Assembly (NCBI GenBank): GCA_965262115.1
Contig: OZ253496.1
Location: 1,835,054-1,899,053, forward strand
DNA length: 64,000 nt
Source of the DNA: Nitrospinales bacterium
GTDB lineage: Bacteria; Nitrospinota; Nitrospinia; Nitrospinales; VA-1
Reading direction: 5' to 3'
The notes beneath the pieces were generated by a model that saw only the letters and a list, made by a program, of their open reading frames with translations, did no database searches and was not told the DNA's origin. Every line of letters begins with the position of its first letter. Position 1 is the first letter of the stretch. Shown piece by piece: positions 24,278-56,073 of the stretch. The position numbers were made by a program, and so were the translations under genes.

Positions 24278-26968
24278 ATGGAAAATTCTGAAAAACACCA
24301 CCGACTGGCGATTGATTTCAGCCAGGTGCAGAATATCCCTGCCGATCCCAAGCAGAGACTGCCCTATTTTCAGACCTTTAAACAATTATTGAAGGATGAG
24401 AAGGCCAGGATCAAAAGCTGGCATCGCTCGGGAACCGGCGGACGCGAAATCATCCAGGCCCACACCAGTCTTGTCGATGAGGTCATCCGGCACGTCCTTC
24501 TTTCCATGACACAGCTTGAGGCTTATGCCTACGCCCGCGTTCTGGAAGGGTTCTCCCTCATCGCGGTGGGGGGCTATGGACGGGGAGAACTCAATCCGCT
24601 TTCAGATATCGACCTGTTGTTTCTTCTTGCCGAAAAAACCAAGCCTCTCACAAAAACATTTATTCAGGACGCACTGTCAGTTATTTGGGGGTTCGACATG
24701 GAAATCAGTCACAGCTCCCGCACCATTAAAGACTGTGTAAAACTTTCCCGGGAGGATTTGACCATCAAAACCTCCATGATCGAAACCCGGTTCCTCATTG
24801 GCAATCGAACCACTTATGACAAGTTTCACAACTCCATCTATAAAAATGTTTTGCAAAAACATGTGAAACAGTTTTTGAACTCCAAACTGAAAAAAACATA
24901 CACCCGCTACGGACAGGAGGACGGCGTGGTGTGCCACCCGGAACCGGATATTAAAAACGGGCCGGGAGGATTGCGAGACTACCATAGCGCCCTGTGGGCC
25001 ACCGCCGTGCGCTATGGATGCCATTCGCTTCGCGAAATCAAAGAGACCCATGTGCTTTCCCGGGAAGAAATTGAGTCGCTCTACCATTCTGTCGATTTTT
25101 CATTGCGCGTCCGCAACGAACTGCATTATCTGACCGAAAGAAAAACCGATGTCCTGACCTTCGACGTTCAGAAACAACTGGCCGCGAATCTGGGTTACCG
25201 GTCTTCCACCCACGGGCAACCCGTTGAAGAGTTCATGCGCGACTATTACCTGCACGCCACCAATATCTATAATTTTTCGCAACACCTTTTTGAACATTGC
25301 CGACAAACCAAAAGATCACTCAAAAAAGTAATCTCTTCATCAACTAAAAAGTCCGTAGGGAGTGGGTTCCATATTTCAGATTCCTTCCTGATTTATGAGG
25401 GCGATGCGAAAGAGGACTTCAAAAAAGATAAATCACTTTTATTGCTGGCGTTGGAGCTTTGCAGAAAGCAAAAGGTCGCGCCGGATTACAAGCTCCAGCG
25501 GCAAATGCGGCTGAGCAAAAGTCTCATTAACGCGCAGTTTATGAAAGGGGACGAGACTCGGGATTTCCTGTTCTCCATTCTGAAAGACAAAGGCGCTGAG
25601 AAAATCCTGCGGCTGATGCATGAAACACACATTCTGGAACAGGTCCTGCCGGAATTCGGGCTGGCACACTGCAAGGTGAACCATGATTTCTATCATCACT
25701 ACACCGCCGATGAGCATTCCCTGCGCGTCATCCGCTTTCTCGATGAACTGGCCATTACCGGCATCACCAATCCCACCGACCTGCCCGCCTTGTATCAGGA
25801 TTACTTTCGGAAAGGGATTCTCAAGTTATCAGCCCTTCTGCAATCGGTAGGAGAAATGCGCGAGGGTGAACAGGGCGAATTTTTAAAATCCATGACAGAA
25901 AGACTGAACCTGGAAGAGGCGGATGTGCAAATCCTGCTTTTTCTTCTCGCTAATCCTTACACCCTGATCGAAACGGCCTTGCATCAGGATATCCACCAGC
26001 CTGCGGTGATCCGGAAATTCGCCGAAACCGTGGTGAACCCGGAGAAGCTGAAGGGACTCTATCTCCTCAGTTATGCCGAGTTGCGGGCGGTGGCACCGGG
26101 AACTCTGACCGCCTGGAAAAAAATATTGCTCTCGGAGTTATATGAAAGGACCCTGAAGTATCTGGAAGACCCAGGTTCTCTGGAACAACAGCCCCGGGCC
26201 ACCCGAGTGGGGGTATTCAAAGCCTTGCATCGGGAACTGCCCGCGAACGATATCGAAAAGCACCTTCGCCAGATGCCGGAAGATTATTTGATGACAGTAT
26301 CCTCTGAAGAGGTGGCACTTCATATCCGTCTCATCCGTTCTTTTAAGGATAAACTGTTTGTTCTGCATCACCAGTTCCATGAAGAAGGCAACTACCATAA
26401 CCTGACCCTGTGTTGCCCTATCGGCATTGAATCGTTTAAAAAACTGGTGGGAACCGTCACTGCCAAAAGCCTGAATATTCTCGGTGCACAAATTTATCTC
26501 AAACAGGATGGCATCGTGATTGTCACTATACAGGTCGAAGCAGGTGCCAACGCCACAGCCGATGACCTCGAAATCTGGAAAGATATTAAAAATACCCTGG
26601 GCCAATTGTTTGCCGGGGAAACCAGTTTACAGAAAATGCTGAAATCCCGAACCCGTTACGTCGGCGAGCAGAAAAAGGTGGCGATGGCCCCGAGAGTGCA
26701 TGTTGAAAAAACGGTGGACAATCCGTTCACAGTAATCCGGGTTGAAGCCCGGGACCATATCGGCATGCTCTACAAAGTTGCCACCGTCTTTGCCAATTTT
26801 GGCATTCGCATTCACCGGGCCAAAATTTCCACCCAGGGCGACCGGGCCATCGATGTTTTTTACGTGTCTCTGAAAAGTCCGAATTTCGACCTCAATAAAG
26901 TGATCCTCCGGTTCAAGGAACATATGATCCAGACCTTGATGATCGAAAAACTGGAAGACGTCCGCTAG
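24278..26968 (+). CDS. glnD: [Protein-PII] uridylyltransferase/uridylyl-removing enzyme
   Basis: Nucleotidyltransferase block (AVGGYGRGELNPLSDIDLLFL), an HD domain (HDFYHHYTADEHSL) and two C-terminal ACT-like domains. Start placed at ATG 24278. The stop TAG lies inside a repeat unit. Confidence 0.9.
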   Translation: MENSEKHHRLAIDFSQVQNIPADPKQRLPYFQTFKQLLKDEKARIKSWHRSGTGGREIIQAHTSLVDEVIRHVLLSMTQLEAYAYARVLEGFSLIAVGGYGRGELNPLSDIDLLFLLAEKTKPLTKTFIQDALSVIWGFDMEISHSSRTIKDCVKLSREDLTIKTSMIETRFLIGNRTTYDKFHNSIYKNVLQKHVKQFLNSKLKKTYTRYGQEDGVVCHPEPDIKNGPGGLRDYHSALWATAVRYGCHSLREIKETHVLSREEIESLYHSVDFSLRVRNELHYLTERKTDVLTFDVQKQLAANLGYRSSTHGQPVEEFMRDYYLHATNIYNFSQHLFEHCRQTKRSLKKVISSSTKKSVGSGFHISDSFLIYEGDAKEDFKKDKSLLLLALELCRKQKVAPDYKLQRQMRLSKSLINAQFMKGDETRDFLFSILKDKGAEKILRLMHETHILEQVLPEFGLAHCKVNHDFYHHYTADEHSLRVIRFLDELAITGITNPTDLPALYQDYFRKGILKLSALLQSVGEMREGEQGEFLKSMTERLNLEEADVQILLFLLANPYTLIETALHQDIHQPAVIRKFAETVVNPEKLKGLYLLSYAELRAVAPGTLTAWKKILLSELYERTLKYLEDPGSLEQQPRATRVGVFKALHRELPANDIEKHLRQMPEDYLMTVSSEEVALHIRLIRSFKDKLFVLHHQFHEEGNYHNLTLCCPIGIESFKKLVGTVTAKSLNILGAQIYLKQDGIVIVTIQVEAGANATADDLEIWKDIKNTLGQLFAGETSLQKMLKSRTRYVGEQKKVAMAPRVHVEKTVDNPFTVIRVEARDHIGMLYKVATVFANFGIRIHRAKISTQGDRAIDVFYVSLKSPNFDLNKVILRFKEHMIQTLMIEKLEDVR

Positions 26969-27377
26969 GCGCGAGGCCAATTTATTCCCCCACATTAGTT
27001 GGCTGGGAGACTCCGCGCCATCATCGCGAACCGCAAAGCGGTGTGGCGATCCAGGTTCTGGATGTGGGAGCGGGACATACTTTAATGATCTTCCCCCTGA
27101 CAAGGAGACCTTTGCATACGTCGAAAAAACGTAAAGTCGAGATTACCCGTTCCGGGCACGAAAGCTTAAGTGAAACATCACGTCTTCACTGCGTTCAGAA
27201 TGACAAGAAACGCCAGCTTGTCATCCTTGAGAAGCCAAAGGCGACGAAGACGTGATATTTTTCCTTAACCTTCGTGAGCCTGTGATATTCCCTCCGCTAA
27301 ATTCATGCCCGGAACGGGTAGAAGGGGTATGTGATGTCCTCTTCCTTAACCTTCATGCCCCGAAGGGGTAATCCGGT
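26966..27377. repeat. Intergenic repeat cluster (CTAG hairpin, GTCATCGCGAA unit, three F1 units, long imperfect palindrome)
   Basis: F1 at 27144-27164 (reverse), 27302-27320 and 27351-27370 (forward). Imperfect palindrome CGTCTTCACTGCGTTCAGAATGACAAG...CTTGTCATCCTTGAGAAGCCAAAGGCGACGAAGACG (27181-27251). Confidence 0.85.
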
Positions 27378-27629
27378 TGATCTTCCCCTGAATTGGTGGA
27401 CACATCGAAAAGTGTGGATAATACACTTTTGGAGGTGTTTTTATGGGAACCAAACGCAGGAGTTTCAGTAAAGAATTCAAGTTAGAAGCGGTTCGATTGG
27501 TTATTGAAGTAGGCGATAGCATTGCCCGGGTGTCCCGGGATCTGGGAATCCGTTCTGCCCTTCTGGGTCGCTGGAAACAGGAGTATGAGGAGGATCAGGT
27601 GTTATGTAAAGGTCTCCTTGTCAGGGGGA
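27092..27629. mobile_element. MITE-A-type terminal inverted repeat pair enclosing a 540-bp mosaic
   Basis: TCCCCCTGACAAGGAGACCTTTGCATA (27092-27118) against the reverse complement of TTATGTAAAGGTCTCCTTGTCAGGGGGA (27602-27629) gives 25/27 identity. The interior holds REP units plus an IS3 left-end fragment, not the MITE-A core. Confidence 0.6.
27378..27599 (+). mobile_element. IS3-family left-end fragment (IRL + first 52 codons of orfA)
   Basis: The 222 bp appear identical to 59838-60059 by eye (TGATCTTCCCCTGAATTGGTGGACA...MGTKRRSFSKEFKLEAVRLV...EYEEDQ). Similarity ends abruptly at 27600. Confidence 0.9.
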
Positions 27630-27641
27630 TTGAGGGGGTAC

Positions 27642-28043
27642 GTGAACCAACACTTAAAGAGAGGGAAAGGCCTGACTTTCCTATTACTAGCCTTCATCAG
27701 TTGGACGCCCCATGCGTCGGCAGAGCCTGTCGACTCAGAAACCGGGCGGGACATTTTCTACAAACATTGCAAAGCCTGCCACGGAAATAAAGGCGACGGC
27801 AAAACTTTTGCGGCCAATGTGCTGAATCCACCGCCAAAAAATTTCACCGATGAAGAATCAAAAAAGGAACTGATGGAAAAACGGATGATTGAATCCGTCA
27901 CAAAAGGAAGGAAAGACACCGCCATGATGCCGTGGGAATCGAACCTCACTCGGGAAGAAATCCGCGCCGTCGTGCATTACATCCGCCAAAAACTGATGAA
28001 ACTGGAACCACCGATGGACACAGATGACAACAGATCAAGCTAA
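27642..28043 (+). CDS. Class I c-type cytochrome (mono-haem), secreted
   Basis: CKACH haem-binding motif and a distal Met region (DTAMMPW). Signal peptide LTFLLLAFISWTPHASA. Start placed at GTG 27642, 5 nt after GAGGGGG. The upstream part of the tracked ORF is mobile-element sequence. Confidence 0.8.
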   Translation: MNQHLKRGKGLTFLLLAFISWTPHASAEPVDSETGRDIFYKHCKACHGNKGDGKTFAANVLNPPPKNFTDEESKKELMEKRMIESVTKGRKDTAMMPWESNLTREEIRAVVHYIRQKLMKLEPPMDTDDNRSS

Positions 28044-28584
28044 GTTAAAAAGCTTCGTAGAGAGATGTTGCTGGGCGTATATCACGCACCAACATTACAA
28101 AGAGCTTTTTGAAGGGAGGAAAAGCGATTTAAGACTCTTCGAAAAAGTTTCACACCAATTCTTTGTAGACCTTAACCGCATATTGATTAAATACTTTTAC
28201 ATTCAAATATACAGCCTAACTGACCGTGATAAGTCTTACGGGAAAGAAAATCTAACTATTAACAACTTATTGAAAACCGTTGATTGGCCCAGTGACATTA
28301 AATCCGAACTTGAAAATAAAGTGAATCGATTGATGGACTTTGGAGAAAAAATCGCAATCGCAAGGAACAAACTCATAGCCCACGTTGACCTGAAGGCACA
28401 TTTAGATGAAAAAGTCTTAGGAGGCTTCGAGGAAGGAGAAGATGAAGAATTTTTCCTTATTCTGGAAGAAACCGTAAATGTTATGCATGAGCACTTGATG
28501 GGCGGTCCATACTCCATCCGCGTCAGCAATGCATTTGAGCCGGTGGAGAAGTTTCTGAGAAAACTAAGAACACTTGAAGAATAA
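28024..28584 (+). CDS. HEPN-domain protein (AbiU2/abortive-infection-like)
   Basis: All-helical 186-aa protein with an R-x5-H motif (ARNKLIAHVD) in the RNK..AH context typical of HEPN Abi families. AT-rich by eye. Overlaps the cytochrome c stop by 20 nt. Confidence 0.6.
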   Translation: MTTDQAKLKSFVERCCWAYITHQHYKELFEGRKSDLRLFEKVSHQFFVDLNRILIKYFYIQIYSLTDRDKSYGKENLTINNLLKTVDWPSDIKSELENKVNRLMDFGEKIAIARNKLIAHVDLKAHLDEKVLGGFEEGEDEEFFLILEETVNVMHEHLMGGPYSIRVSNAFEPVEKFLRKLRTLEE

Positions 28585-28682
28585 AAAGCCTGTCACCACA
28601 GTCATAAATCTGTGTTTATTGGTGTCCATCTGTGGCTAAAAAGGTTTTCTTGATAAGACACGGTTGCAAATTACAAGCAGGA

Positions 28683-28988
28683 TTAAACCATGTTCTGCGG
28701 TAGCGGGCGGATATTTTTCTCCATCGTGGGCCAATCATCTCGCCTGGCAAGCTTGAGGTCGTAGCGAGACTGCAAATTCATCCAGAATTCGGCAGTCGTT
28801 TTAAAGTATTTTCCCAGTCGCAAAGCACTATTGGCCGTGATACCGCGTCGGGCATGAACAATATCGTTGATACGTGCTACAGGGACATCAATATCCCTCG
28901 CAAGTTTGTTTTGGCTGATCCCAAAGGGCAACATAAACTCTTCCAGTAGAATTTCTCCCGGCGTGACCGGCGCCAGTTTTTTTCTCAT
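28683..28988 (-). CDS. higA: HigA-family antitoxin (XRE HTH)
   Basis: PGEILLEEFMLPFGISQNKLARDIDVPVARINDIVHARRGITANSALRLGKYF.T..EFWMNLQ is the canonical HigA/VapI pattern. Confidence 0.9.
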   Translation of the reverse strand: MRKKLAPVTPGEILLEEFMLPFGISQNKLARDIDVPVARINDIVHARRGITANSALRLGKYFKTTAEFWMNLQSRYDLKLARRDDWPTMEKNIRPLPQNMV

Positions 28989-29004
28989 AATCTACTCGCT
29001 CTAT

Positions 29005-29283
29005 TTAATGATAATCGACGATTTCCACATCATGGGGATGACCATCTTTCCACTTAAAACAAACCCTCCATCGTTCGTTGATGCGGATACTGTATTGGCC
29101 CTTACGGTTTCCCTTTAAAGCTTCTAATCTGTTGCCCGGTGGTTGCCGCAAATCATTAATCTCTTTGGCGGCTTCGAGCATTTCCAGTTTTCTCCTGGCA
29201 ACCCTTTCGATATTTCGAAAAAGTGGAACCAATTCATCTCGAAACAGGTTTTCCGTGTCTTTGCAGCGGAAACTTTTAATCAT
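29005..29283 (-). CDS. higB: HigB-family toxin (RelE/ParE superfamily, 'killer protein')
   Basis: MIKSF.CKDTE.LF..........I.RVARRKL..L.AA....DLR.PPGNRLE.LKG.R.GQYSIRINE+WR.CF.W. Lies upstream of higA. Confidence 0.9.
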   Translation of the reverse strand: MIKSFRCKDTENLFRDELVPLFRNIERVARRKLEMLEAAKEINDLRQPPGNRLEALKGNRKGQYSIRINERWRVCFKWKDGHPHDVEIVDYH

Positions 29284-29352
29284 TCTTTATAGTATTCCTA
29301 AAAAAGAAACGTGTCAACAGGAATTCGATAACAGAAATATAGGTTTCTTCTC

Positions 29353-29661: not shown

Positions 29662-29685
29662 ATTCATGTCCTCAAAATTCACTAG

Positions 29686-29797
29686 GCGGAGTACCTCCGC
29701 TGGTAATTTGCAATTTCTTTATTTCGTGGGCAAACGTTTTCTCGGCCCAACGAGTCATTGCGAGTTGGCCCCACGCCGAGTGGGAATTTATTACTTG
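29686..29797. repeat. MITE-B copy (about 110 bp; GGCGGAGTACCTCCGC hairpin at one end, CCCCACGCCGAGTGGG at the other)
   Basis: CACTAGGCGGAGTACCTCCGCTGG...TTGCGAGTTGGCCCCACGCCGAGTGGG is collinear with 45117-45220 and 55965-56073. Confidence 0.75.
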
Positions 29798-29819
29798 CAT
29801 TTTAGGGCTGAAATATGAA

Positions 29820-31819: not shown

Positions 31820-31823
31820 TCGA

Positions 31824-37907: not shown

Positions 37908-38339
37908 ATGGGTAACGAAAAATCACGGTTTTTGAAAAGAGATGATGGAACTATTTACGATTCTCTGACCAGCGTCACCTGGATGGCCAACGACTCACGG
38001 TTGGATCTGGAAAAAGAGGTCTCTTACTCGGAAACGGAAGAATATGTAAAATCAATGAACGAAAAAAAAGTGGGCGGCTATGCGGACTGGCGTCTCCCTT
38101 CCATCCATGAAGCATCCTCCATTTTTGACAAGGAAAAGTTGAACAAAGATTTCAAGGGCGCCGACATACATCTCGACTCTGTGTTTCCTGCCGGTGCGGG
38201 CAACTGCACATGGACTTCAGCCACTCGCGGCAAGGAAGCACAAATCATGTTTTACATGAACGGCTGTGCCTACTGGTACAGAAAGGACGACCAAACCATT
38301 TCCCACGGGGCACGCCTCGTCCGCCGCGACAACAACTAG
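37908..38339 (+). CDS. DUF1566 (Lcl C-terminal domain-like) protein
   Basis: The LTSVTWMAND...GGYADWRLPSIHEASSIF pattern. The stop TAG lies inside a CTAG hairpin repeat. Confidence 0.7.
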   Translation: MGNEKSRFLKRDDGTIYDSLTSVTWMANDSRLDLEKEVSYSETEEYVKSMNEKKVGGYADWRLPSIHEASSIFDKEKLNKDFKGADIHLDSVFPAGAGNCTWTSATRGKEAQIMFYMNGCAYWYRKDDQTISHGARLVRRDNN

Positions 38340-38578
38340 GCGTTGGGCCAACTAGCAATAAGGTGTTTGACCGACAAACTTCTTCTCGGCTTGAACAGGT
38401 TTAACTCCCTCTTTCTAAAAGAGGGCTGGGGTGATTGACCACCAGAGGGTGTCATGCTGAGCCTGTCGAAGCATCTATTTGTGATATTTGACCAGTGCCT
38501 TCATGCCCCCGTAGAAGTATAACGAGCTCTTACTATTTACATCCCTCCCTTCATAGGGAGGGACTGAGGGAGGGTTGG
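38333..38578. repeat. Intergenic repeat cluster, including the CCCTCCC/GGGAGGG hairpin next to the following start codon
   Basis: CAACTAGGCGTTGGGCCAACTAGCAATAAGG; TTCTCGGCTTGAA; GTCATGCTGAGCCTGTCGAAGCATC; a degenerate F1 (38499-38519); CCCTCCCTTCATAGGGAGGGACTGAGGGAGGGTTGG (38543-38578). Confidence 0.85.
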
Positions 38579-39687: not shown

Positions 39688-40412
39688 TCACTCTTCGAGG
39701 GAGAGCTTTGCATAACCCAAGATTCTTCGTTGCAATAGCTCCTCAGAATGACAAAATAGCCTTTTATTGTCATGCTGAGCTTGTCGAAGCATCTCGCTTT
39801 TCTGCTTTATAGACTTACGCAAAGGTCTCGCTTCGAGGGTCATGTACTTTGGATTGTCGAACATAAGTCCGAAGGCGGGGACTTTTTTGGGCTGGCGGGT
39901 CAGGTTGCGGTATATCTCGTGAAATGATTCAGTATCCAACGAATCATCCATCAACCCGACCAGTTGCTGCGGGGTGATGGCATTCATCGAATTTTCCGAA
40001 AACAGCGAGGTTCCAATTCCGGACCAATGCGAAGAGACAAAACCCTGACGCACCAAATGGGTAGTGCCGAGCGAGTTTCTCCGGCTTTGGCAAGGATGTG
40101 CCGGGCAATGTAGGCGGGGACGCAACGGCCAATGGCTACTATCCGCGATGGATTCTCCGCCGGGTAAACAAAAAGTCCCACCACCGTGTTGCCCATCTCA
40201 GCAAATTCTTTGCGGATGTTTTTTAAATCTTTTTCATAGCGTTTCGAGACCCAGGCTTCCAGTTTTACCGGCTTATGGGAAATGGAAACACAGTTTTTTT
40301 CTGCATACAAGATACCCGGAGTAACCGTCAATTCTATTAAAATTAGAAAAATACTAATTCGGCGAGCCACCGTTAGCAGATGGCAAGAACTCGTTATACC
40401 CCTCCCGGGCAT
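39688..40412 (-). pseudogene. Frameshifted paralog of the 40530-41102 gene, 3' end fused to MITE-A
   Basis: ORF 39984-40412 matches the N-half of the neighbour (KLEAWVSKRYEK...IVAIGRCVPAYIARHI). ORF 39688-40125, in another frame, matches the C-half (HWSGIGTSLF...FHEIYRNL...PAFGLMF) and then reads on into MITE sequence. Confidence 0.8.
39690..39839. mobile_element. MITE-A copy (about 150 bp, uninterrupted)
   Basis: ...GAGAGCTTTGCATAACCCAAGATTCTTCGTTGCAATAGCTCCTCAGAATGACAAAATAGCCTTTTATTGTCATGCTGAGCTTGTCGAAGCATCTCGCTTTTCTGCTTTATAGACTTACGCAAAGGTCTCGCTTCGAGGG is collinear with 18129-18367. Confidence 0.85.
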
Positions 40413-40529
40413 GAAAGCTGAGGAAAGATTATCACAAGCCGAAATTACGTTTGCCTGCCGGACATGATATTTATTCCTTAGCCTTCGTGCCCCGAAGGGG
40501 TAAAAAGCTATTGCTAGTTGGCCTCACGG
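40397..40529. repeat. Intergenic repeat cluster between the two paralogs
   Basis: F1 reverse at 40397-40417 with its tail running to ATCAC. F1 forward at 40483-40502. GCTATTGCTAGTTGGCCTCACGGCTAGTGGGCGG holds the stop of the 40530 gene. Confidence 0.8.
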
Positions 40530-41102
40530 CTAGTGGGCGGTTTTGACATTGGGAACCTGCAAACCAAAATAGGGTGTCAACTTATTGGGCACCGACAATT
40601 TTCGGTACAGGACATGGAATTCTTCATCCGAAATATCCTGTTTCAATAGTTGTTGAACCTGCTCGGCAGAAACGATCTGTTGTGAAGGTTCATCAAACAT
40701 AGTGACGCCAACACCTACCCAATGGGTATGGACGAACTGCTGTTGCACCAGACTCTCGACACCGGTGCTGTATTCCATGGATTTTTTGATAATGTGCTGG
40801 GCAATATAGGCTGGCACGCATCGCCCCACCGCAATCACTTTTGAGGTCTCGCCCATGGGATACACCCTCAAGGCCACGCGTGTGGAACCTATCTCACCAA
40901 ATTCCTTGAAGACCTGTTTTCTTTGCTTGCGATAAGATTTGGAAATATAGCCCTCAATTTTGATACGTTTTTGATCGACGGGTTCACATTTTTCCTCGGC
41001 AAACACCGGAGCCACCATCCCTAAAACCATCAAAACAGGTAATGCCTGCATTCGGAACCGCTGCCATAACTCACTGAATTGCTGCTTTTTTAATTGCATC
41101 AT
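40530..41102 (-). CDS. Secreted protein of unknown function (intact paralog)
   Basis: Signal peptide (ALPVLMVLGMVAPVFAEE). The conserved GRCVPAYIAQHI block is shared with the adjacent pseudogene. Confidence 0.7.
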   Translation of the reverse strand: MMQLKKQQFSELWQRFRMQALPVLMVLGMVAPVFAEEKCEPVDQKRIKIEGYISKSYRKQRKQVFKEFGEIGSTRVALRVYPMGETSKVIAVGRCVPAYIAQHIIKKSMEYSTGVESLVQQQFVHTHWVGVGVTMFDEPSQQIVSAEQVQQLLKQDISDEEFHVLYRKLSVPNKLTPYFGLQVPNVKTAH

Positions 41103-45045: not shown

Positions 45046-45116
45046 CCGCGAAAAAGGCCGTAAGCTTTTATTTGAAAAGGGTTATAGCAATCGCTAAATC
45101 AATGACTTTCCCACCC

Positions 45117-45220
45117 CCTAGGCGGAGTACCTCCGCTGGGTAGTGGCAATGGCTTTTTACCGCTAGCAACAATTCTCTTTGCCTAACGGGTTCCTGCTAG
45201 TTGGCTCCACGCCTAGTGGT
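45117..45220. repeat. MITE-B copy overlapping the nadA stop codon
   Basis: CTAGGCGGAGTACCTCCGCTGGGTAGTGGCAATGG...CTGCTAGTTGGCTCCACGCCTAGTGG. CTAG is present at both ends (45117-45120 and 45213-45216). On the minus strand nadA ends ..CAC TAG within it. Confidence 0.8.
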
Positions 45221-46223: not shown

Positions 46224-46411
46224 AAGTTTTCCTTACCGGCATGGGCGGCGAACCGCCGCTGGCAACTAGCAATATCTTTTATCTTGCCTCAAACGGTTTC
46301 TCGGCTTAAGGACAAGCAGTCAAACAATGGCTCTTTAAGCCGAGACAACTCTTTGCCAGCCAAACAAAGCTATTGCTCATCATGGTCCAGCGTCACGCTG
46401 GCGCCAAGTGG
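46224..46411. repeat. MITE-B-like palindromic element filling the nadA / HIT intergenic gap
   Basis: GGCGGCGAACCGCCGC hairpin, TGGCAACTAGCAATA, TTCTCGGCTTAAGG...CTTTAAGCCGAGA inverted pair, AGCTATTGCTCATCATGG and CCAGCGTCACGCTGG hairpin. Confidence 0.75.
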
Positions 46412-49244: not shown

Positions 49245-49294
49245 GGGATCAACTCCTTTTGTTGCCAGGCCGTTTCTGCCTCTTCACCCGAGCA

Positions 49295-50029: not shown

Positions 50030-50113
50030 TTTTAACTGTCCCCTCTAGTCCCATAGCGAGTTTTCCCTTAAAATGAGGATACTTAAAAACCCCTTCACTC
50101 TTCCTCTGTTGTG

Positions 50114-51574
50114 CTAAACCAGTTGTTTGCTGGAGTTGAGAATCTCTTCAACCTCTTCGGAGCCAATGACTCCGGTCAAATCGAGAATCTCTCCGTTCAT
50201 AAACTCAACTCCGGTCCAATGAATGCTTTTTATTTTCTCCGCTCCTTGAGCCACCGCCTGCCCTCTTATCTGGGCACGGGTTCCTGTTGGAGGCGACTCA
50301 ACAGCCCGGGCGATTTCTTCTTCACTGAGCAGGGAATAAACATCCCCCTCCTGCTGCAATCCCAGATACAATCCGCGATCAGGGTCCAGATTATGGTATT
50401 CCAAATCCAGGCTCTTGAGCAAGGGGTCCTCCCAGCCAATGCCCTCGGACTGCATGAACCCGGTAAATAGTTTTTCCTTGATCGCCCAGTCGATGCGATC
50501 CGAAAGTTTTTCCGGACTGTGCCGAAGTTCATCCAGTGTCTTTTTCCATTCCGCAAGAATCCAGTCCCACTCGCGATCCTTTCCGGCAAAGGCTTTTTCT
50601 ACCGCCTCTAAATACGCTTCCTGAATCTCAAGAGCCGTGATAGTACCACTAGTCTTGCGACGTAAAACTGCAGTTTTGTCGAGAGACACTCTTAACACAT
50701 CGGCCACTGGGTCCGCCAATTCCAAATGGAGAAGTTTCTCCTCACGGGCGATCAGATTGAGAACCAGCGATGTACTCCCCACCTTCAGGGCCGTGGCATA
50801 AGCGGACATATTGGCATCGCCGAGAATTAAATGCAAACGCCGATACCGACTGCTCACCGCATGCGGTTCGTCCCGGGTATTGATGAGGGGACGCTTCGTC
50901 ATGGTCTCGATGCTTAAAACTGTCTCGATAAAGTCGGACCGCTGGGCCAACTGCAACCCCTGAAAATCACTAGCGTTTTCTGATCCCACTTTTCCTGCCC
51001 CGGCATACAACTGGCGCGTCACCAGAAAAGGAGCCAGCCCTTTTACCACATCTTCGAAGGGAGTTTCTCTGGGGATGAGATAGTTATCATGAGTTCCATA
51101 ACTATGGCCGCTGTAATCGGTATTATTTTTGAACACCTGAAGCGGTTTGCCCTCCAGCTCGCGGTTGCGAATGGCCACGCATTCGGCGACAATCCGCTCG
51201 CCCGCCACATCGTGCGCAACCAGAGATAACACCGACCGGCATTCCGGGGTGCTGTATTCTGGATGAGTATGATCATTATAAAACCGGGCACCATTTGTCA
51301 AAACCCGGTCGCACTTCATATCTAAATAAGAATAAGGCCTTTTACGATCTTCGGCGCAAAAGGCATCTTCTTCTTCATCCTGAGCCAAAGACCCCACCCG
51401 AAACCCACGCATATCCAGATGCGAGTTCTCCTGCGAGTAGGCCCATTTGCCAAACACGCTTTTGCGTTCGCAGGCCTTTAAAAGTTTCATGGACTCTTCA
51501 ACCGGGTCGGAATTTTCCATATCTTCCCGGACTATCCCATACTCGGTCTCCATACCCAGGAGAGAAACACTCAT
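50114..51574 (-). CDS. dop: Pup/UBact deamidase-depupylase Dop homolog
   Basis: LLGMETEYGI and VLTNGARFYNDHTHPEYSTPE match the Dop pattern ([21 protein letters not shown], from memory). It sits next to mpa as in actinobacteria, and its start overlaps the mpa stop. Confidence 0.85.
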   Translation of the reverse strand: MSVSLLGMETEYGIVREDMENSDPVEESMKLLKACERKSVFGKWAYSQENSHLDMRGFRVGSLAQDEEEDAFCAEDRKRPYSYLDMKCDRVLTNGARFYNDHTHPEYSTPECRSVLSLVAHDVAGERIVAECVAIRNRELEGKPLQVFKNNTDYSGHSYGTHDNYLIPRETPFEDVVKGLAPFLVTRQLYAGAGKVGSENASDFQGLQLAQRSDFIETVLSIETMTKRPLINTRDEPHAVSSRYRRLHLILGDANMSAYATALKVGSTSLVLNLIAREEKLLHLELADPVADVLRVSLDKTAVLRRKTSGTITALEIQEAYLEAVEKAFAGKDREWDWILAEWKKTLDELRHSPEKLSDRIDWAIKEKLFTGFMQSEGIGWEDPLLKSLDLEYHNLDPDRGLYLGLQQEGDVYSLLSEEEIARAVESPPTGTRAQIRGQAVAQGAEKIKSIHWTGVEFMNGEILDLTGVIGSEEVEEILNSSKQLV

Positions 51575-53187
51575 ATGATAGACCTGCGAATCGTGTTTTC
51601 GGTGGCCCTATCCGATTCTCTGGGCTTTCTCACCCGCACAACATTTTTTGATTCCATATCCAAAAGCTGAAGCCAGTCTTCCATATTGGATTCCGCAGGA
51701 AGCAGGTTGCCTTCCTCAAATTCAGCCTCCAGTGAAACAATAAGATCGTCCACTGTCATACACAGCGTTTCACCCTGAATCGCCCGTTCAATGGATCTCT
51801 CTTTAGCGCGTTTCATGATTCCCTCAATAACCGCACCGGAAATGAAATCGTTCCAGTACAGTTTTTTGGTGCCGCCGCTTCTTAAAGTCAACACCAGCAC
51901 TTCCTGTTCCGAACTGCGGTCAAACAGGCGATCCAGAAATGGTTCGGCCATGGCGTCAAAATCTTCATGTTCACGGGGCAATCCGTCTTTCAGGTAAACA
52001 CGCAGGATAGCTTTAGACTCTTCACGGTTGGGGCGCGACACTTTGATCTTTCTGTCAATTCTGCCGGGCCGGATGACAGCCGGGTCGATCAGGTCGGGCC
52101 GGTTGGTCGCCAGAATCACTACCGTTTCGCGAAGGGATTGGATGCCATCCATCTCCGCGCAAAACATGGGGACCACCGTGTTGCTGATGTTCGATCCGCG
52201 CCACGCCTGCCGGGTTCCCAGAATGGATTCCGCTTCATCTATAAATATGAAAGGAATCTGACCTTTTTCTTTATAGTCCCGGGCTTTCTTAAAAATTTCA
52301 CGGATTTTACGTTCCGATTCCCCCAGCCACATATTGAGGATCTCCGGTCCTTTGACATGAATAAACCGGCCCTGCAGTTCGGAATTTTCCTGCTCGGAAA
52401 GTTTGCGGATCACTTCGGTGAGAATCGCTTTTCCTATGAGAGTTTTTCCGCAACCCGGAGGACCATAAAACAAAAACCCTTTGGGCACCTGATATTCCAT
52501 CTGGCTCAGAATTTCTTTGTGCAGGAGCGGATATTCGAGGACTTTGCGCACCTCTTCTTTTACTTTTTCCTGTCCGCCCACCTGTGACCATTCCACATGT
52601 TCATAATCATCTTCGACCAGAGTGCGGGACTCGCGTTTAGAAAGTTTTCCTAAAATAACCCTTTGGTTACTGTCGAGAAAAATTTCTTCCCCCTCTTTCA
52701 GCCCGGTTTCATCCAGACCCTCTCGGACCAAAACAATCGTCTCGGTATTGCCGGTCGCCGCCTGCACCAGCCATTGCCCACCGGCAAGCTTTCCGGAAAT
52801 TTTTGCTAGTGCCCCCTGAGTGGGAAAAGGTAGTAGGGCAATCACCACAAATCCTTCATTGAGCGCGACCTGATCACCGGTTTTCAATCCCTCATTTTCC
52901 GTAAGTTCCGGGACGACCGCAGCCTGGTATTCCGTGCCTCCGGAAACCAGACGCACCAGACCGTCCTCCCCCTGACCAAGAATCGTGCCGATGCGATGGG
53001 CGGGAGACTTTAACTTTTCAATGGCTTCCTCCAAGGTCTTGATTTTCAACGCATACTGCTGGGCAGACTGCTGGGCCTGAAACATGGCATCCCTGAGATC
53101 AAGAATTTTTTCCTGCAATTGGGGTCGATCCTGGGTTTCATTTAAAACCTGGTCGATCAACTCTACAATATGGGTCGGGTCTCCCAT
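51571..53187 (-). CDS. mpa: Proteasome-associated AAA+ ATPase (ARC/Mpa family)
   Basis: N-terminal coiled coil, OB-like region, Walker A GPPGCGKT, Walker B FIFIDEAE, and the second region of homology. The C-terminus reads ...TIRRSII, with no Tyr-containing HbYX/GQYL tail. Confidence 0.9.
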   Translation of the reverse strand: MGDPTHIVELIDQVLNETQDRPQLQEKILDLRDAMFQAQQSAQQYALKIKTLEEAIEKLKSPAHRIGTILGQGEDGLVRLVSGGTEYQAAVVPELTENEGLKTGDQVALNEGFVVIALLPFPTQGALAKISGKLAGGQWLVQAATGNTETIVLVREGLDETGLKEGEEIFLDSNQRVILGKLSKRESRTLVEDDYEHVEWSQVGGQEKVKEEVRKVLEYPLLHKEILSQMEYQVPKGFLFYGPPGCGKTLIGKAILTEVIRKLSEQENSELQGRFIHVKGPEILNMWLGESERKIREIFKKARDYKEKGQIPFIFIDEAESILGTRQAWRGSNISNTVVPMFCAEMDGIQSLRETVVILATNRPDLIDPAVIRPGRIDRKIKVSRPNREESKAILRVYLKDGLPREHEDFDAMAEPFLDRLFDRSSEQEVLVLTLRSGGTKKLYWNDFISGAVIEGIMKRAKERSIERAIQGETLCMTVDDLIVSLEAEFEEGNLLPAESNMEDWLQLLDMESKNVVRVRKPRESDRATENTIRRSII

Positions 53188-53436
53188 GAATAAGTCCTTT
53201 ATTTTGGTTGTGAACTCAATTGTATGAACAAAAAATTTTATAAATCAAGTCAATTTTCTCAAAGGTTTAGTAGAGAAAACCTTGTCATTATATTAGGATG
53301 GAAGCTTCTATTGATTATTGTCCTGAAAAACTTTCGCTCAAATTTTTCGTATTCCCACAGAGCCCGGCATAATCCCAAGTGGCACCAAGACCACCTTTAA
53401 CACGAAAGTGATTTCTGACAACAAGTTTTTGATTCT

Positions 53437-54747
53437 ATGACCTTTGCGAACAACAAAACCCCTATCGAAAAATGCATCATCAGTTTCAGCCATAACAAAT
53501 ATTCCACCCGTAAAGAAGCCGATGCGGTGAGCCTTGCCAAGGCAGAACGTGAAATTGCCGCTGGGAAAAATGGCATCAGCCATCTTCTTCTAAGAGCTGA
53601 GGATGACGACATTGATCGACTGAAATTTCTTTTTTTGATCCGGGGAATTCCTATCATGTGTTACGCGCTGGGGAACCTAATGAACTCCGGCTTGCGCGAA
53701 ATCGTGGTCGTCGGCTCTGAGGAAGTCAAAAAAGTTATGGACCGCTTCCTCGACATTGTTGGCACCTGCGGAAAAACCATCCGGTTTGTCCGGGAAGATA
53801 CCCAACACCTCAATCTGGTCCACACCATGAATCTGGGCCGGGAGTTGCTCTCTCCTTCACCCGATGAACTGGTTCTGTTCCAACCCGGCGACCTGCCTTT
53901 CCTGTACGATTTGGAAAAAGTATTGTGCTTGCCCGACAACAAAAAATATAACCTGGTGCTCTGGTTGAACTCCCGACAAACGATGTTCCCGGATTTTGCA
54001 AAGAATCCGGACAGTGAATTTGTCAAACGCAATTACCATTACCGCTCTTTCAGCGAAAATGAAGCCAGCCTGCTGGATCTTAAAGAACCTAACTTATATC
54101 CCATTAACTTTGCAATGATGGATTCGGATATCATTGACCGCCTGCACTCTTCCCGCAAGGACGGACAAATAATTCACGCGGGCATCCAAATCGCTTTGCA
54201 AAAACCCTTACGCTTACTCAAAGTTCTGCCTTATGTCATGGACCATCTGTTGACGTTCCGAATAAATGTAAACCGTATCAGACCCGGCGACCGGTATCAT
54301 TTCGGCATGTCCCGAAAAAATTTCCATAAAGGTATCTCCCGCTTGCTCAATACTCCCCTGACCACCACGTTGCACGACGACCCGGCTTTCGTTTCCGATG
54401 TCGATGCATTGGAAGATTGGGAAGATTTTGAGTCTCTCACCCATCATGCGGAAAAAACCCATGGCCAGGAGGGACTGGAGACCATCCACCCGTTTGGACA
54501 ATCCCTGACCCGGTTTCGTGAAAAGGGCATGCCTCAGTTGAAAACAGAGATTCCCATGTATCGGGATTTTCCTTCCTACCTCAACTCTATTTATGAAACG
54601 CTCAAGATGGGTTATGTGCCCTTTGACAGGGACAACCAATACATCTCGCCCAACGCGAACTTGAAAGAAGTGGGGTTCGCATACCACTGGTATAAACAAA
54701 AATGTGCACGTCTGAAACAAACTCATGAGAACCGACAACAGGCCTGA
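53437..54747 (+). CDS. Hypothetical protein with an N-terminal MobA-like nucleotidyltransferase-fold region
   Basis: IRGIPIMCYALGNLMNSGLREIVVVGSEEV...LFQPGDLPFL resembles NTP_transf_3/MobA-like proteins, but the G-rich LAGG..R loop reads LLLRAEDDDIDR. The C-terminal 250 aa are unassigned. Confidence 0.5.
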   Translation: MTFANNKTPIEKCIISFSHNKYSTRKEADAVSLAKAEREIAAGKNGISHLLLRAEDDDIDRLKFLFLIRGIPIMCYALGNLMNSGLREIVVVGSEEVKKVMDRFLDIVGTCGKTIRFVREDTQHLNLVHTMNLGRELLSPSPDELVLFQPGDLPFLYDLEKVLCLPDNKKYNLVLWLNSRQTMFPDFAKNPDSEFVKRNYHYRSFSENEASLLDLKEPNLYPINFAMMDSDIIDRLHSSRKDGQIIHAGIQIALQKPLRLLKVLPYVMDHLLTFRINVNRIRPGDRYHFGMSRKNFHKGISRLLNTPLTTTLHDDPAFVSDVDALEDWEDFESLTHHAEKTHGQEGLETIHPFGQSLTRFREKGMPQLKTEIPMYRDFPSYLNSIYETLKMGYVPFDRDNQYISPNANLKEVGFAYHWYKQKCARLKQTHENRQQA

Positions 54748-54864
54748 CCGGAAAAATCACTGGCGTTATGCCGAGACCCGCTTTCTGCAAACCGAAAATA
54801 ACGCTATAATACAGACTATAATTTTGCAGGGTAAAATTTAAGCACGCGGACAAACGAGCCAAAA

Positions 54865-55821
54865 ATGCCAAAATCGTGGCAGGGCAATAGTTTATTGAAC
54901 CTAACCCGATTATCCGGGTTTATCCTTTTATCGGTGGGCATTCACATAACATCGGTGATCGCCTACATGGTGATCCCCGTCGCGAAAGAAGAAGTAAAGG
55001 GACCTCCCCCTATCCGGATAAAATATATCGAACCGGAGAAACCCCTGGCCGCCAAAGGTGGCCGAATCATCGATACGCCGACGCCACCCAAAAAAATCGA
55101 GAAGCCCAAAAACAAAGATCTGCTGGCAAAATTTGACAGCCGAGCCCATTTCAATATCAAAAAGAAAACTGCAAAAACCTATCAGCGCAAAAAAACCGTG
55201 GTGCCGAAATCGAAAGGGTCGGTGGGCAAAACAGGTGCCGCGCCCGTTCGAGAAAAGAAAGTCGCACGCAAACCGCAAAAACGTGCCGCGATTGAGCCGG
55301 GAAGAAAACTCCTGCCGGAATCAGATATTGGAAAATATAAATCCGTTACCCGGGAAAAACCCAAACCCACGATGTCCTCCGCCAATCCCAAGGCAGGCAC
55401 AGGTAGCGCCTTGGCTCTTCTGGACGGGTTTGACCCCGAACCCTTCGCATCGCTCAGCACAGAGGATCTCGAAAACATCGATGATGACGAACCGGTTTCC
55501 CTCGATACAACAGAAGTCAAATACGCTTCTTATTTCGCTAGGATCAAGCACCAGATTGAACGGGTATGGATTTATCCCACCGAAGCGGCGCAACGCGGCA
55601 TCAGCGGGGATATCACTTTGACATTCAGAATTTCCAAGGACGGCAACCTTCTGGGAGTGCGGCTGTTGGATCAATCAGGCTATGAAATTCTGGATGTGGC
55701 CGCGCTCAAAGCCGTGAAGGAAGCGGCCCCCTTTTATCCCTTCCCGGCAACCATTGACCGGGAGAGGTTATCCATCCAAGCCAATTTCGTTTACACCCCC
55801 CAATTCGAACCTGCCCACTAA
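54865..55821 (+). CDS. tonB: TonB-family energy transducer
   Basis: N-terminal TM, a Pro/Lys-rich spacer and a TonB_C domain (YPTEAAQRGISGDITLTFRISKDGNLLGVRLLDQSGYEILDVAALKAV). The stop TAA lies inside a repeat. Confidence 0.85.
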   Translation: MPKSWQGNSLLNLTRLSGFILLSVGIHITSVIAYMVIPVAKEEVKGPPPIRIKYIEPEKPLAAKGGRIIDTPTPPKKIEKPKNKDLLAKFDSRAHFNIKKKTAKTYQRKKTVVPKSKGSVGKTGAAPVREKKVARKPQKRAAIEPGRKLLPESDIGKYKSVTREKPKPTMSSANPKAGTGSALALLDGFDPEPFASLSTEDLENIDDDEPVSLDTTEVKYASYFARIKHQIERVWIYPTEAAQRGISGDITLTFRISKDGNLLGVRLLDQSGYEILDVAALKAVKEAAPFYPFPATIDRERLSIQANFVYTPQFEPAH

Positions 55822-56073
55822 CCGGGCAACGCCCGGTGGTAACTAGCAATATCTCTTAAGTGCTAGCAACCGTTAACTCGGCTTAAAAAGGGACGCCATC
55901 GAACGGCACTTTAAGCCGAGAAGAAGTTTGTTTTTCAGATAGGGCTATTGCCCATCTCCACCGGGCGGAGTACCTCCGCGGGCAGGTTGCAATGTGTTTA
56001 TCTTGCGGGCAATCGTACTGGCGGCCCAACAAGTTATTGCTCGCTGGCCCCACGCCTAGTGGGGAAGAAATCT
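55819..56073. repeat. Composite palindromic repeat block (MITE-B units) spanning the convergent tonB and dinG stops
   Basis: CCACTAACCGGGCAACGCCCGGTGGTAACTAGCAATA...AACTCGGCTTAAA...TTTAAGCCGAGAAG...GGCGGAGTACCTCCGC...TTATTGCTCGCTGGCCCCACGCCTAGTGGGG. Confidence 0.8.

Follow-up and report, generated by a model that had tools for sequence, protein, structure and literature searches.

The window, the whole stretch of 64,000 nucleotides analysed here, carries copies of a short hairpin repeat, of which 22 module ends are in contact with 13 gene ends. Pfam identified, among the products of these genes, GlnD, Lcl_C/DUF1566, NadA, TonB, TPR, HIT, a DinG-like helicase and a GHMP kinase, in agreement with a sequence-only reading of this DNA, and every hairpin/stop junction quoted in that reading is present in the sequence. 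Its central claim, that a dispersed hairpin-ended repeat supplies stop codons and C-terminal residues, holds more strongly than first put, and four more genes are of the same kind (MMPL, dinB, the 62448-63902 ORF and the Metallophos gene in its old frame). The gene ends carrying a module are:

2250..2330, minus strand: TPR gene end, long-form element reading ..CAC TAA CCGGTGAGCCGCAGG..; stop 2324-2326 is the tag; junction CAC TAA CCGGTGAGCC.
6244..6286, plus strand: MMPL gene end, the ORF continues through module variant CTCC TCGGC(G) GGAG + GGCCAATGAGC, which encodes its last ~14 residues; stop 6284-6286.
9055..9149, minus strand: GHMP kinase gene end, family-A element; stop 9120-9122; the ORF reads CCACTGGACGTGAGGGCCAGTGAGCAA TAG.
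15689..15705, minus strand: dinB end, solo degenerate module CGC TAC TCG GCG TAA GGCC, 3 nt upstream of the next gene's ATG; dinB ends in CTAC TCG GCG TAA GGCC (15689-15701).
19548..19615, plus strand: Metallophos gene, module CCACTAGGCGTGG + family-C body; the ancestral frame ends AAC CAC TAG inside the module (19548-19560), and the present ORF has an earlier stop (19495-19497).
26962..27010, plus strand: glnD end, short element GTC CGC TAG GCGCGAGGCCAATTT..GTTGGCT; junction at 26966, CGC TAG GCGCGAGGCC.
38333..38395, plus strand: DUF1566 end, half element CAAC TAG GC GTTG GGCCAACTAGCAATA.. with a compensated stem; junction at 38337, AAC TAG GCGTTGGGCC.
40505..40536, minus strand: end of ORF 40530-41102, module + T motif (CCACTAGCCGTGAGGCCAACTAGCAATAGC); junction CAC TAG CCGTGAGGCC; a family-C unit (40471-40506) comes next.
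45115..45219, unstranded: nadA end, 105-nt inverted dimer whose right-hand module supplies the last codon and stop (TAC CAC TAG, stop 45213-45215; minus-strand junction CAC TAG GCGTGGAGCC), and the left-hand, long-form module, CCCC TAG GCGGAGTACCTCCGC TGG, lies towards the next gene's start.
46224..46411, minus strand: HIT end, 188-nt long-hairpin element directly 3' of the HIT stop, GGT TAG followed by CCACTTGGCG CCAGCGTGACGCTGG ..., upstream of the nadA ribosome-binding site.
55815..55955, plus strand: tonB end, ~140-nt long-hairpin element GCC CAC TAA CCGGGCAACGCCCGG TGGTAACTAGCAATA..; junction CAC TAA CCGGGCAACGCCCGGTGG.
55955..56062, minus strand: dinG end, 105-nt dimer; stop 56034-56036; the ORF reads CC ACT AGG CGT GGG GCC AGC GAG CAA TAA.
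62435..62447, minus strand: end of ORF 62448-63902, module variant CTGC TCGGC GCAG directly adjoining the TAA; two of its pairs are compensated.

The remaining copies in the window are:

927..954, minus strand: short module CCACTAAGCGTGG (gene sense) capping a family-C repeat and adjoining a GGCGGAGAACCTTCGC hairpin; the nearest stop is 119 nt away, so this is not a gene-end copy.
6300..6386, unstranded: composite of an element end ..ATTGCCAGCTACCC-CCACGGTTAGTGG, a CCGGGCGACGCCCGG palindrome, TGGAAATTAGCAAC and a second module, CCGCTAGGCGTGG.
17568..17580, minus strand: short module between divergent genes, not located at a stop; L084 has a module near the counterpart of this site in opposite orientation.
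29679..29783, unstranded: inverted dimer of 105 nt, its tags pointing outward, TCAC TAG GCGGAGTACCTCCGC TGG ... GGCC CCACGCCGAGTGG, between two gene starts and not at a stop.

The unit common to these copies is a 13-nt hairpin module, CCAC-T(A/C)GGC-GTGG, which caps several repeat families of 50-190 nt. A closing stem of 3-4 bp (CCAC/GTGG) encloses the tag T(A/C)G, followed inside the stem either by GC alone (short form) or by a 6-bp G+C palindrome inserted 3' of the TAG/TAA (long form); TCG takes the place of TAG in half of the modules (58 of 123). At least five unrelated bodies of 50-170 nt share the cap (families A, A2, B, C and D). Module-capped repeats also form tandem arrays with a 97-nt period, and two inverted caps yield hairpin-forming units of 105-190 nt, the longer copies already described as having a hairpin at both ends. 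A genome scan with GGCYCCACGCYKAGTGG gave matches mostly in Nitrospina/Nitrospinaceae MAGs. The repeat family lies on the stop codons of about one fifth of the genes in this Nitrospina-type genome, where it is often the source of the stop and of the last amino acids: the His-stop endings derive from the CCAC arm, as had been proposed, and the tails ..TRRGASEQ of DinG and ..DVRASEQ of the GHMP kinase both come from the module + GAGCAATAA/TAG.

Placement at stop codons is highly non-random. Of the 22 curated module ends in the window, seven to eight have a stop precisely at offset -3 or +4, where chance would give ~0.1 (mean 0.095, maximum 3 exact matches, in 20 000 random placements across non-coding space and the final 30 nt of every gene). 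A wider sample, 80 Nitrospinaceae loci and the window, gave 124 modules, whose offsets are unbiased by locus choice because the loci were picked by module sequence and not by gene context. A long-ORF stop lies at -3, abutting the module, in 18 of them (the HIT and 62448 ORF class) and at +4, where it is the loop TAG, in 22, together 40 of the 124; in a further 13 the stop is at -5..-9, and in 11 the ORF reads through to +19..+48. The earlier picture of a stop sitting in the hairpin loop thus describes one main class, the 22 loci at +4, but the stop is equally often 0 nt from the module. The triplet at -3 of modules was TAG in 11 cases, TAA in 11 and TGA in 2, while TGA makes up one third of stops overall. 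No TAR was found ahead of modules located away from stops, so a rule of insertion 3' of TAR fails for some copies. Short spacers alone might be thought to force any intergenic repeat near a stop without any preference, given a coding fraction of ~84% and several empty spacers of only 5-30 nt. Such packing is already contradicted by the offsets and the random placements, and we give it next to no credence: offsets are quantised, 40 of the 64 modules whose stop falls in -9..+48 having it at -3 or +4, and the insert still begins at the stop in spacers of 30-50 nt.

Comparison of filled and empty sites revealed that module insertions supply stops or C-terminal residues. With HIT and glnD, insertion occurred right behind an unchanged stop. 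The HIT-nadA gap holds the 188-nt insert in the window, beginning immediately after TAG, versus 5 nt without element in four relatives (L203, L205, L207 and L208), and glnD in relatives ends GTA CGC TAA TTCAAG with an identical C-terminus, synteny with them being lost at 26967. In nadA, tonB, proteasome beta, the 40530 ORF and dinG, on the other hand, the last 1-3 residues are replaced. Without the repeat NadA ends ..HYSSQ or ..EYAD, versus ..HYH; TonB ..EPITR (native, L205) versus ..EPAH; proteasome beta ..KRG versus ..KRH; the 40530 product ..TAQPE (L209) versus ..TAH; and DinG ..DFFT or ..DFFAYK versus ..DFFPTRRGASEQ. C-termini of repeat-free orthologs are therefore mostly different, contrary to what had been named as grounds for abandoning the proposal. 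The repeat is absent from DUF1566 in L209 (GAT AAT TAA), and the proteasome beta site is empty in the window and L198, filled by the short form in L205 and by the long form in L203; here CGG GGA TAA became CGC CAC TAG at the same length. Further filled/empty pairs were L083 versus L108, L074 versus L060, and the IDH end in L198 versus the window, and dinB belongs to the same set of comparisons. In the +4 class the CCAC arm thus replaces native codons at constant length, a change that simple insertion leaves unexplained. Copies of the gene's own end, 6-13 nt long, flank some inserts, a pattern that fits neither REP nor IS200-type transposition.

Turnover at these sites is rapid. The tonB palindrome is CCGGGC-AAC-GCCCGG in the window versus CCAGCG-TGA-CGCTGG in L197 (TAC TAG CCAGCGTGACGCTGG at the same place), with flanks ~90% identical. 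At the nadA end the window, L208 and L207 each have an element of their own and L209 has none; the TPR ortholog in L087 ends TGA followed by CCACTCGATGATGG, another copy. DinG tails are hypervariable among near-identical orthologs, with at least 25 distinct tails after ..DFF among 43 orthologs with at least 86% identity.

The sequence-only reading had suggested a MITE with a CTAG target duplication. An element of the IS630/Tc1 type (or IS481 type) inserting into CTAG and duplicating TA (or NCTAGN) would leave CTAG at the flanks of every copy and would strike stop codons because they contain TAG, and the CTAG/TA target specificity of IS630 is established. CTAG is indeed rare in the window (46 copies) and 24-fold denser within repeats, 18 of the 46 lying inside 1.6 kb; it stands at both borders of 45115-45219, and the HIT insert can be read with a TA on either side. 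The CTAGs of that dimer (45117-45220 as first delimited) belong, however, as tags to two terminal modules in inverted orientation, of which one is long-form, and are paired into the CCAC/GTGG hairpin. Sister dimers show CTAG/CGAG (29679-29783) and CCGG/CTAG (55955-56062), CTAG follows the distal GCGGAG..CTCCGC hairpin in only two of seven copies, and half of the modules have TCG. Empty sites in relatives read ATAG, GTAG, TAA or TGA, not CTAG, with no clean TA/CTAG duplication, and the window contains IS110-type and IS3-type but no IS630/IS481 transposase. We consider this origin quite improbable.

Stem pairing is conserved: in a covariation sample hand-picked among recognised copies, 89% of cells were paired versus 81% in shuffles and nine cells had two-sided changes versus 2.0 expected, with none of 500 shuffles reaching either value. 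Changes on both sides produced CAAC/GTTG (DUF1566), CTGC/GCAG (62447) and CCGC/GCGG (L070). The long elements fold better than shuffles (z -2.7 and -3.8), the 105-nt units were not more stable than shuffles (z -0.8 to -1.3), and the short-form stem has 4 bp only. A stem kept despite two-sided changes is what would be seen if host-level selection, rather than transposase targeting, retained the hairpin at stops, as an RNA 3'-end structure (stabilising mRNA, blocking exonucleases or modulating termination or ribosome release) or as a protein-binding site. Also consistent with such a function are the sense-specific orientation, tag towards the ORF; the dinB-end module, which persists in two lineages ~70% identical (in L012 as CGC CAC TAG GCGTGGGGCC + a 160-nt family-D body); the L198 DinG stop, within an unrelated hairpin, ACTCCTTAGTGAAGGAG; and REPs reported as RNA elements downstream of ORFs (PMC3733652). 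Against it stand the turnover, with close relatives carrying different elements at one site, the many copies between divergent gene starts (29679-29783, 17568), altered C-termini of conserved enzymes, which look costly, and empty orthologous sites that appear functional. The hairpins lack a T-run behind them, terminator-like sites show no enrichment (22 versus 17.4 expected), and scanning 109 gene ends for hairpins of any kind gave no sharp peak at the stop. Retention for function is the less improbable of these alternatives, though still unlikely.

We think it reasonably probable that the copies form a family of small, non-autonomous elements spread across the Nitrospinaceae and akin to REP/REPINs or hairpin-ended MITEs. 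Such elements would be gained, lost and exchanged fast, and nearly all would land, or survive, a few nucleotides at most from a TAG/TAA stop. Landing just 3' of the stop would leave the protein intact; landing a few nucleotides 5' would let the element's own stops take over, the loop TAG and then CTAG or AATAG/AATAA within the next 30 nt, so that the ORF would end after 1, 7-9 or ~15 new residues. They may be moved by a single-strand DNA enzyme that recognises hairpins (a RAYT/IS200-type HUH transposase) or by some comparable activity, and precision at stops probably reflects insertion preference together with purifying selection elsewhere in a densely packed genome. No RAYT, IS200-type or IS630-type transposase turned up in crude scans for HUH/Tyr motifs over ~630 kb of Nitrospinaceae loci, and module-flanked ORFs are ordinary genes.

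Among known systems, IS200/IS605-derived PATEs likewise have different hairpins at their two ends and no fixed-length target duplication, and in several filled/empty pairs here the insert lies directly 3' of a short TA-containing motif (TAG/TAA). They differ in that copies here away from stops have no preceding motif, bodies have long inverted repeats with the hairpin at the very tip rather than subterminal, and neither TnpA nor TnpB was seen. ERIC/RU-1, YPAL/RU-2 and Correia-type MITEs belong to enterobacteria and Neisseria and, unlike the copies here, are bounded by defined terminal inverted repeats and duplicate TA; no two-position quantised offset to the stop is known for them. They too are small repeats that form hairpins, lie in 3' regions and at times enter ORFs, adding residues or stops (PMC2759123). 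Tagged REP/REPIN elements are the closest known kind. RAYT tyrosine (HUH) transposases mobilise GTAG-tagged REPs and REPINs, the inverted REP dimers. Like the copies here, REPs are abundant, short palindromes outside genes in which a conserved tetranucleotide tag adjoins a 6-bp stem rich in G+C; a single family can contain alternative complementary stem sequences, and the inverted dimers, tags outward, form 100-nt hairpins (PMC3733652). As here, they associate with other repeats, lie mostly <20 nt downstream of ORFs and have termini reported to provide TAG stops, some copies being read as protein (PMC3733652). The tag here is instead C-T-(A/C)-G or CTAA and lies within the closing CCA(C)/(G)TGG stem, not unpaired at the tip as in REP; the commonest form is 13 nt only, with the palindrome lost; and the scans above found no RAYT gene. 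The host phylum, Nitrospinota, is absent from the text of the 2013 REP survey ('Nitrospi', 0 matches). The repeats described here are a lineage-specific variant of a phenomenon already described for bacterial REP elements.

The repeats share a 13-nt hairpin module. On the coding strand of the neighbouring gene it reads CCAC-T(A/C)GGC-GTGG, and GGCC usually comes next. Because the flank on the CCAC side differs immediately from copy to copy, the module marks where the repeat truly ends. In a long form, a G+C palindrome of 6 bp separates the tag from TGG (for example CCAC-TAG-GCGGAG-TAC-CTCCGC-TGG); alternative palindromes, again with 6-bp stems and 3-nt loops, are CCGGGC-AAC-GCCCGG, CCAGCG-TGA-CGCTGG and GCGGCG-AAC-CGCCGC. 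The short form, in which the 4-bp closing stem alone is retained, looks like the long form minus its palindrome. At least five distinct bodies are capped by the module, and tandem arrays of the repeat have a 97-nt period. Family C is a second abundant repeat of the window and is often module-capped.

Body A: GGCCAaTgAGCAATAGC..
Body A2: ..GTGCCGTCGC..
Body B: ..ACTGCATTGCCCG..
Body C: ..GTGATATTCTTCC..GGGGTA; also GTGATATTCTTCC..TTCATGCCCCGAAGGGGTA
Body D: ..AATAGGTC..
6387-6427: family C unit
18069-18104: family C unit
18255-18295: family C unit
19571-19615: family C unit
27280-27370: family C unit
40471-40506: family C unit
60178-60222: family C unit
62363-62403: family C unit

Units of 105 nt (29679-29783, 45115-45219 and 55955-56062) are bounded by two inverted modules with their tags outward, and fold no better than shuffled sequence (z -0.8 to -1.3). 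The 140-190-nt units at 55815-55955 (z -3.8) and 46224-46411 (z -2.7) form long hairpins that beat shuffles. The 4-bp stem is changed on both sides but stays paired in several copies (CAAC/GTTG, CTGC/GCAG, CCGC/GCGG, GCAC/GTGC). Among 25 distinct variants, hand-picked from recognisable copies, 89% of cells were paired compared with 81% in shuffles, and 9 cells were changed on both stem sides compared with 2.0 expected; neither value was reached in any of 500 shuffles. Slid stem controls gave 22-52% pairing wherever all four pairs could still be counted. Complementary arms could arise from templated repair of quasi-palindromes, for which selection is not needed. Rfam 15 gave no match at gathering score in the window and none at E<=1 in 55700-56200, and a tRNA scan gave no match.

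The window, with a G+C content of ~0.49, comes from a Nitrospina-type bacterium. The nearest homologs of its DinG and NadA, 89-95% identical, carry the label Nitrospina or Nitrospinae, and a scan with GGCYCCACGCYKAGTGG over one genome per species matched mostly Nitrospina, Nitrospinaceae and Nitrospinota MAGs. The 17-mer GGC(C/T)CCACGCCGAGTGG was also found in loci L004, L005, L008, L016, L033, L038, L072 and L112 of Desulfomonilaceae and 'delta proteobacterium' MAGs, where it belongs to another repeat, with conservation on either side of it; Nitrospinota are therefore not the only group to carry the motif.

The sequence-only reading had proposed that a CTAG hairpin repeat provides the stop codon or last residues of at least nine genes. 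All nine junctions that it quoted are correct in the sequence, Pfam bears out its gene names, and four further genes of this kind were found, so that modules touch 13 of ~58 genes. The MMPL gene reads through a CTCC..GGAG module variant, dinB ends in a degenerate module, and the TAA of ORF 62448-63902 directly adjoins a CTGC..GCAG module. The fourth is an old Metallophos frame: gene 18427-19497 has a premature TAA (19495-19497) where the ortholog in L198, a locus of a relative, has Glu, and the old frame continues for 17 more codons to end AAC CAC TAG in a module, ~17 residues shorter than in L198. At 7-8 of the 22 module ends in the window, the stop lies exactly at -3 (abutting the module) or at +4 (the module's loop TAG). 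Random placement in non-coding space and gene tails gave a mean of 0.095 and a maximum of 3 in 20,000 trials. This null, together with the quantised offsets described below, excludes a pure packing artefact, in which short spacers would bring modules close to stops. CTAG was also found to be over-represented in the repeats: the tetranucleotide is rare, with 46 copies in the whole window, and 18 of them fall in 1.6 kb of repeats, a 24-fold excess. No sharp peak appeared when perfect hairpins of any kind were profiled around 109 annotated stops; the stop signal is therefore specific to this repeat family rather than to hairpins generally.

Offsets were then scored for 124 short modules from 80 Nitrospinaceae loci and the window, a stop being counted if its frame had at least 100 codons; a few of the scored ORFs are spurious (one was identified, in L203). 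Since the loci were picked by module sequence and not by gene context, the offsets are unbiased. Stops fell at -3 for 18 of the 124 modules, at +4 for 22 and at -5 to -9 for 13. Another 11 had stops at +19, +20, +26, +42 or +48, the frame running on into the body and its CTAG and AATAG/AATAA, and 33 had no such ORF nearby. The triplet at -3 was TAG in 11 cases, TAA in 11 and TGA in 2, whereas TGA makes up a third of long-ORF stops (P about 0.005, hand binomial estimate). A stop triplet precedes 24 of 123 modules; away from stops, no TAA or TAG (TAR) stands in front. Gene ends called independently by database pipelines in relatives show the same junctions: TAA followed directly by CCGGCGCCGGCGAGCCGCCGG, CCACTCGGCG or GGCAGAGAGCCGAG, and TAG by CCAGCGTGACGCTGG.

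Close relatives, obtained through look-ups of DinG and NadA homologs, provided filled and empty sites. Between HIT and nadA, the empty site (L203, L205, L207 and L208) reads ..GGG TAG AGGAA ATG, a gap of 5 nt; the filled site in the window reads ..GGT TAG, CCACTTGGCG..(188 nt)..AGGAAAACTT, ATG, and the protein is unchanged. At the glnD end, GTA CGC TAA TTCAAG in L198 corresponds to GTC CGC TAG GCGCGAGGCC in the window, again with an unchanged protein. Inserts likewise begin directly after the stop in the L083/L108 and L074/L060 pairs and at the IDH end (L198 versus the window). Some inserts come with a 6-13-nt duplicate of the gene end (ATGAGCAATATGT in L074, GCGGGG in L203), and the HIT insert is possibly flanked by such a duplicate as well (CCGGGTTAG/CCGGTAAG). 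The sequence-only reading had also suggested a MITE with a CTAG target duplication. Such an element, of IS630/Tc1 type with a TA (CTAG) duplication at both ends of every copy, is not supported: the CTAGs belong to the inverted modules, half of all modules carry the tag TCG, copy borders vary (CGAG, CCGG or none), and empty sites lack CTAG. Transposase genes in the window are of IS110 and IS3 type only.

At other genes the C-terminus itself has changed. The proteasome beta subunit ends ..K R G * (CGG GGA TAA) in the window and L198; in L205 it ends ..K R H * (CGC CAC TAG ACGTGGGGCC..), the CCAC arm taking the place of native codons with no change in length, and in L203 a long form is read through. 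Both filled genomes retain the old GAGGT(T)AAATAT, now downstream of the insert. NadA ends ..HYH* in the window versus ..HYSSQ*, ..HYSAC* or ..EYAD* in relatives. A look-up of the exact window NadA protein returned no record, and a metagenome scan with NadA recovered only distant homologs (<=57% identity), none with modules; these homologs indicate that the C-terminal length of NadA is native. TonB ends ..EPAH* versus ..EPITR* in L205, the 40530 ORF (40530-41102) ..TAH* versus ..TAQPE* in L209, and the DUF1566 protein ..RRDNN* versus ..RRDN* in L209. In 43 DinG orthologs (>=86% identity) the conserved part stops at ..EVRDFF and is followed by at least 25 different tails, such as T, TP, V, AYK, RARKPK, DSNEASR, ..NEQ and PTRRGASEQ; RARKPK*, in L197, is encoded by a family C repeat. 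Comparison with orthologs therefore upheld altered C-termini for NadA, TonB, the 40530 ORF, DUF1566, DinG and proteasome beta, but not for HIT and glnD. In L198, which lacks the repeat at this site, the DinG stop (11940-11980) lies inside an unrelated hairpin, ACTCCTTAGTGAAGGAG, that occupies the 20-nt gap to a convergent gene.

Element turnover is fast. The TonB palindromes of the window and L197 differ, each fully complementary, in flanks of ~90% identity, being swapped like cassettes, and the nadA end has three different states among three relatives. The dinB module is present in two ~70%-identical lineages, with a 160-nt body in one that is absent from the other. It is possible that the hairpin has a selected 3′-end function as RNA or DNA, as its sense orientation to the gene, its conserved stem and its persistence at dinB would suggest. 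Rapid turnover, copies at gene starts and the lack of a general hairpin peak at stops argue against such a function. No T-run follows the modules, which thus fall outside the definition of an intrinsic (Rho-independent) terminator, a G+C-rich hairpin plus T-run; terminator-like sites were not enriched in a scan of the stretch from 44 to 58 kb (22 versus 17.4 expected), and only one lay in an element apex.

Modules also mark rearrangement breakpoints. Synteny with L198, L203 and L205 ends exactly at the glnD stop (26967) and at the dinG module (56063). In L198 a Ysc84 gene and dinG come straight after glnD; in the window a 47.0-58.9 kb block is inverted and ~20 kb (roughly 27-47 kb) intervenes. 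The gene 3′ of dinG varies in relatives (tonB, CDP-alcohol phosphatidyltransferase, squalene-hopene cyclase or PCP_red). Other repeats and genes were observed in the window:

18135-18352 and 39692-39829: repeat pair, 93 nt (96%) plus 48 nt (100%), motif GTCATGCTGAGC..GTCGAAGCATC
19838-19896 and 20411-20450: related CCTTCGAG..CTCAGGATGAC units
27378-27599 and 59838-60059: exact 222-nt direct repeat holding the start of an IS3-type orfA (HTH_Tnp_1)
27522-28043: cytochrome c ORF, into which the first 222-nt copy extends
28024-28584: HEPN AbiU2-domain ORF (abortive-infection type), directly after the cytochrome c ORF; region missing from the glnD neighbourhood of relatives
60395-61189, minus strand: 264-aa IS110-family transposase gene (DEDD_Tnp_IS110 + Transposase_20), flanked by family C units 60178-60222 and 62363-62403

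REP-like repeats are known targets of IS110/IS1111 elements.

These elements are best described as a REP/REPIN-like (hairpin-tag), non-autonomous repeat family colonising gene 3′ ends. Three observations argue that the elements insert preferentially around the stop: the offsets are quantised, TAR is favoured, and within 30-50-nt spacers the inserts start at the stop. A copy landing after a stop would be silent. Within 30 nt of its tip an element has stops in two reading frames, so that a copy in the last codons would close the ORF after 1 or 7-9 new residues (~15 in the third frame). Purifying selection would then sharpen placement in a genome that is 84% coding. From element anatomy only, we infer that a single-strand, hairpin-recognising HUH transposase (RAYT or IS200-type) moves the elements. 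In a REPtron the repeats flank a cognate RAYT gene. The HUH..Y (HUH/RAYT) motif had no match in six-frame translations of the window and the 80 loci (~630 kb), and ORFs flanked by inverted modules encode housekeeping proteins (NuoB, HisI, a CBS protein, cytochrome c and others), not transposases. Modules without TAR, length-neutral codon replacement, 6-13-nt duplicates and cassette-like palindromes do not fit a simple insertion rule. It seems unlikely that elements are actively aimed at stops as safe sites, the GTGG arm possibly pairing with last codons, or that the stop-in-loop hairpin is a selected termination or mRNA-fate signal. In aimed insertion, the machinery would recognise the TAG/TAA region at ORF ends and rebuild the stop within the hairpin loop. 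Either mechanism, if true, would be undescribed for REPs or MITEs, and would explain the -3/+4 quantisation, the exchange of last codons at constant length and the arm-codon complementarity at DUF1566 and glnD. Guide pairing, which needs a CCAC-TAG-type target, was rejected as a general rule because the native last codons of orthologs are not CAC.

The sequence-only observation was thus confirmed and extended, and its interpretation partly supported. In these nitrite-oxidising marine bacteria, a mobile repeat writes the 3′ ends of about a fifth of genes, often together with the last residues. As a result, NadA, DinG, TonB, the proteasome beta subunit and other conserved enzymes have strain-specific C-terminal tails. 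This has consequences for calling genes and comparing orthologs in Nitrospinota MAGs. Filled and empty sites occur naturally at high density here and bear on why REP-like elements hug stops, by targeting or by selection; the quantised offsets are the point worth pursuing. A dedicated stop-codon-targeting activity, if it exists, would represent a new type of safe-site selection.

REPs reportedly lie within 15 nt of stops, a finding ascribed to Liang and Deutscher. In the literature library searched, we found no paper linking Nitrospina with REPs or MITEs. GTAG- and CGTC-tagged REPs, known from >80 species, have 6-13-bp stems with alternative complementary residues, form dimers with outside tags, associate with other repeats and lie mostly <20 bp from ORF 3′ ends; a REP terminus supplying TAG also has precedent (Di Nocera et al. 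2013, PMC3733652). Like REPs and REPINs, the Nitrospina elements are abundant, short, extragenic imperfect palindromes (6-bp stems in the long form), form inverted dimers with tags outward, fold as long hairpins at 46224-46411 and 55815-55955, and lie just downstream of ORFs, where their terminus can give TAG. Their TMG polymorphism resembles the GTMG variants of REPs (PMC3733652). In contrast to the conserved, unpaired GTAG (GYAG/GTRG/GTMG) of REPs, however, their tag is CTAG, CTCG or CTAA, and its first base, C, belongs to the CCAC arm, which pairs with GTGG; we therefore set them outside the GTAG family. The comparison with IS200/IS605-derived PATEs, which insert 3′ of one fixed tetra- or pentanucleotide with no duplication, is mixed: the insert follows TAR at HIT, glnD, L083, L074 and the L198 IDH end, but a stop triplet stands before only 24 of 123 modules and 6-13-nt flanking duplicates occur. 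The supply of stops by REP elements is already reported, and the family described here is a variant of such elements with another tag and architecture.
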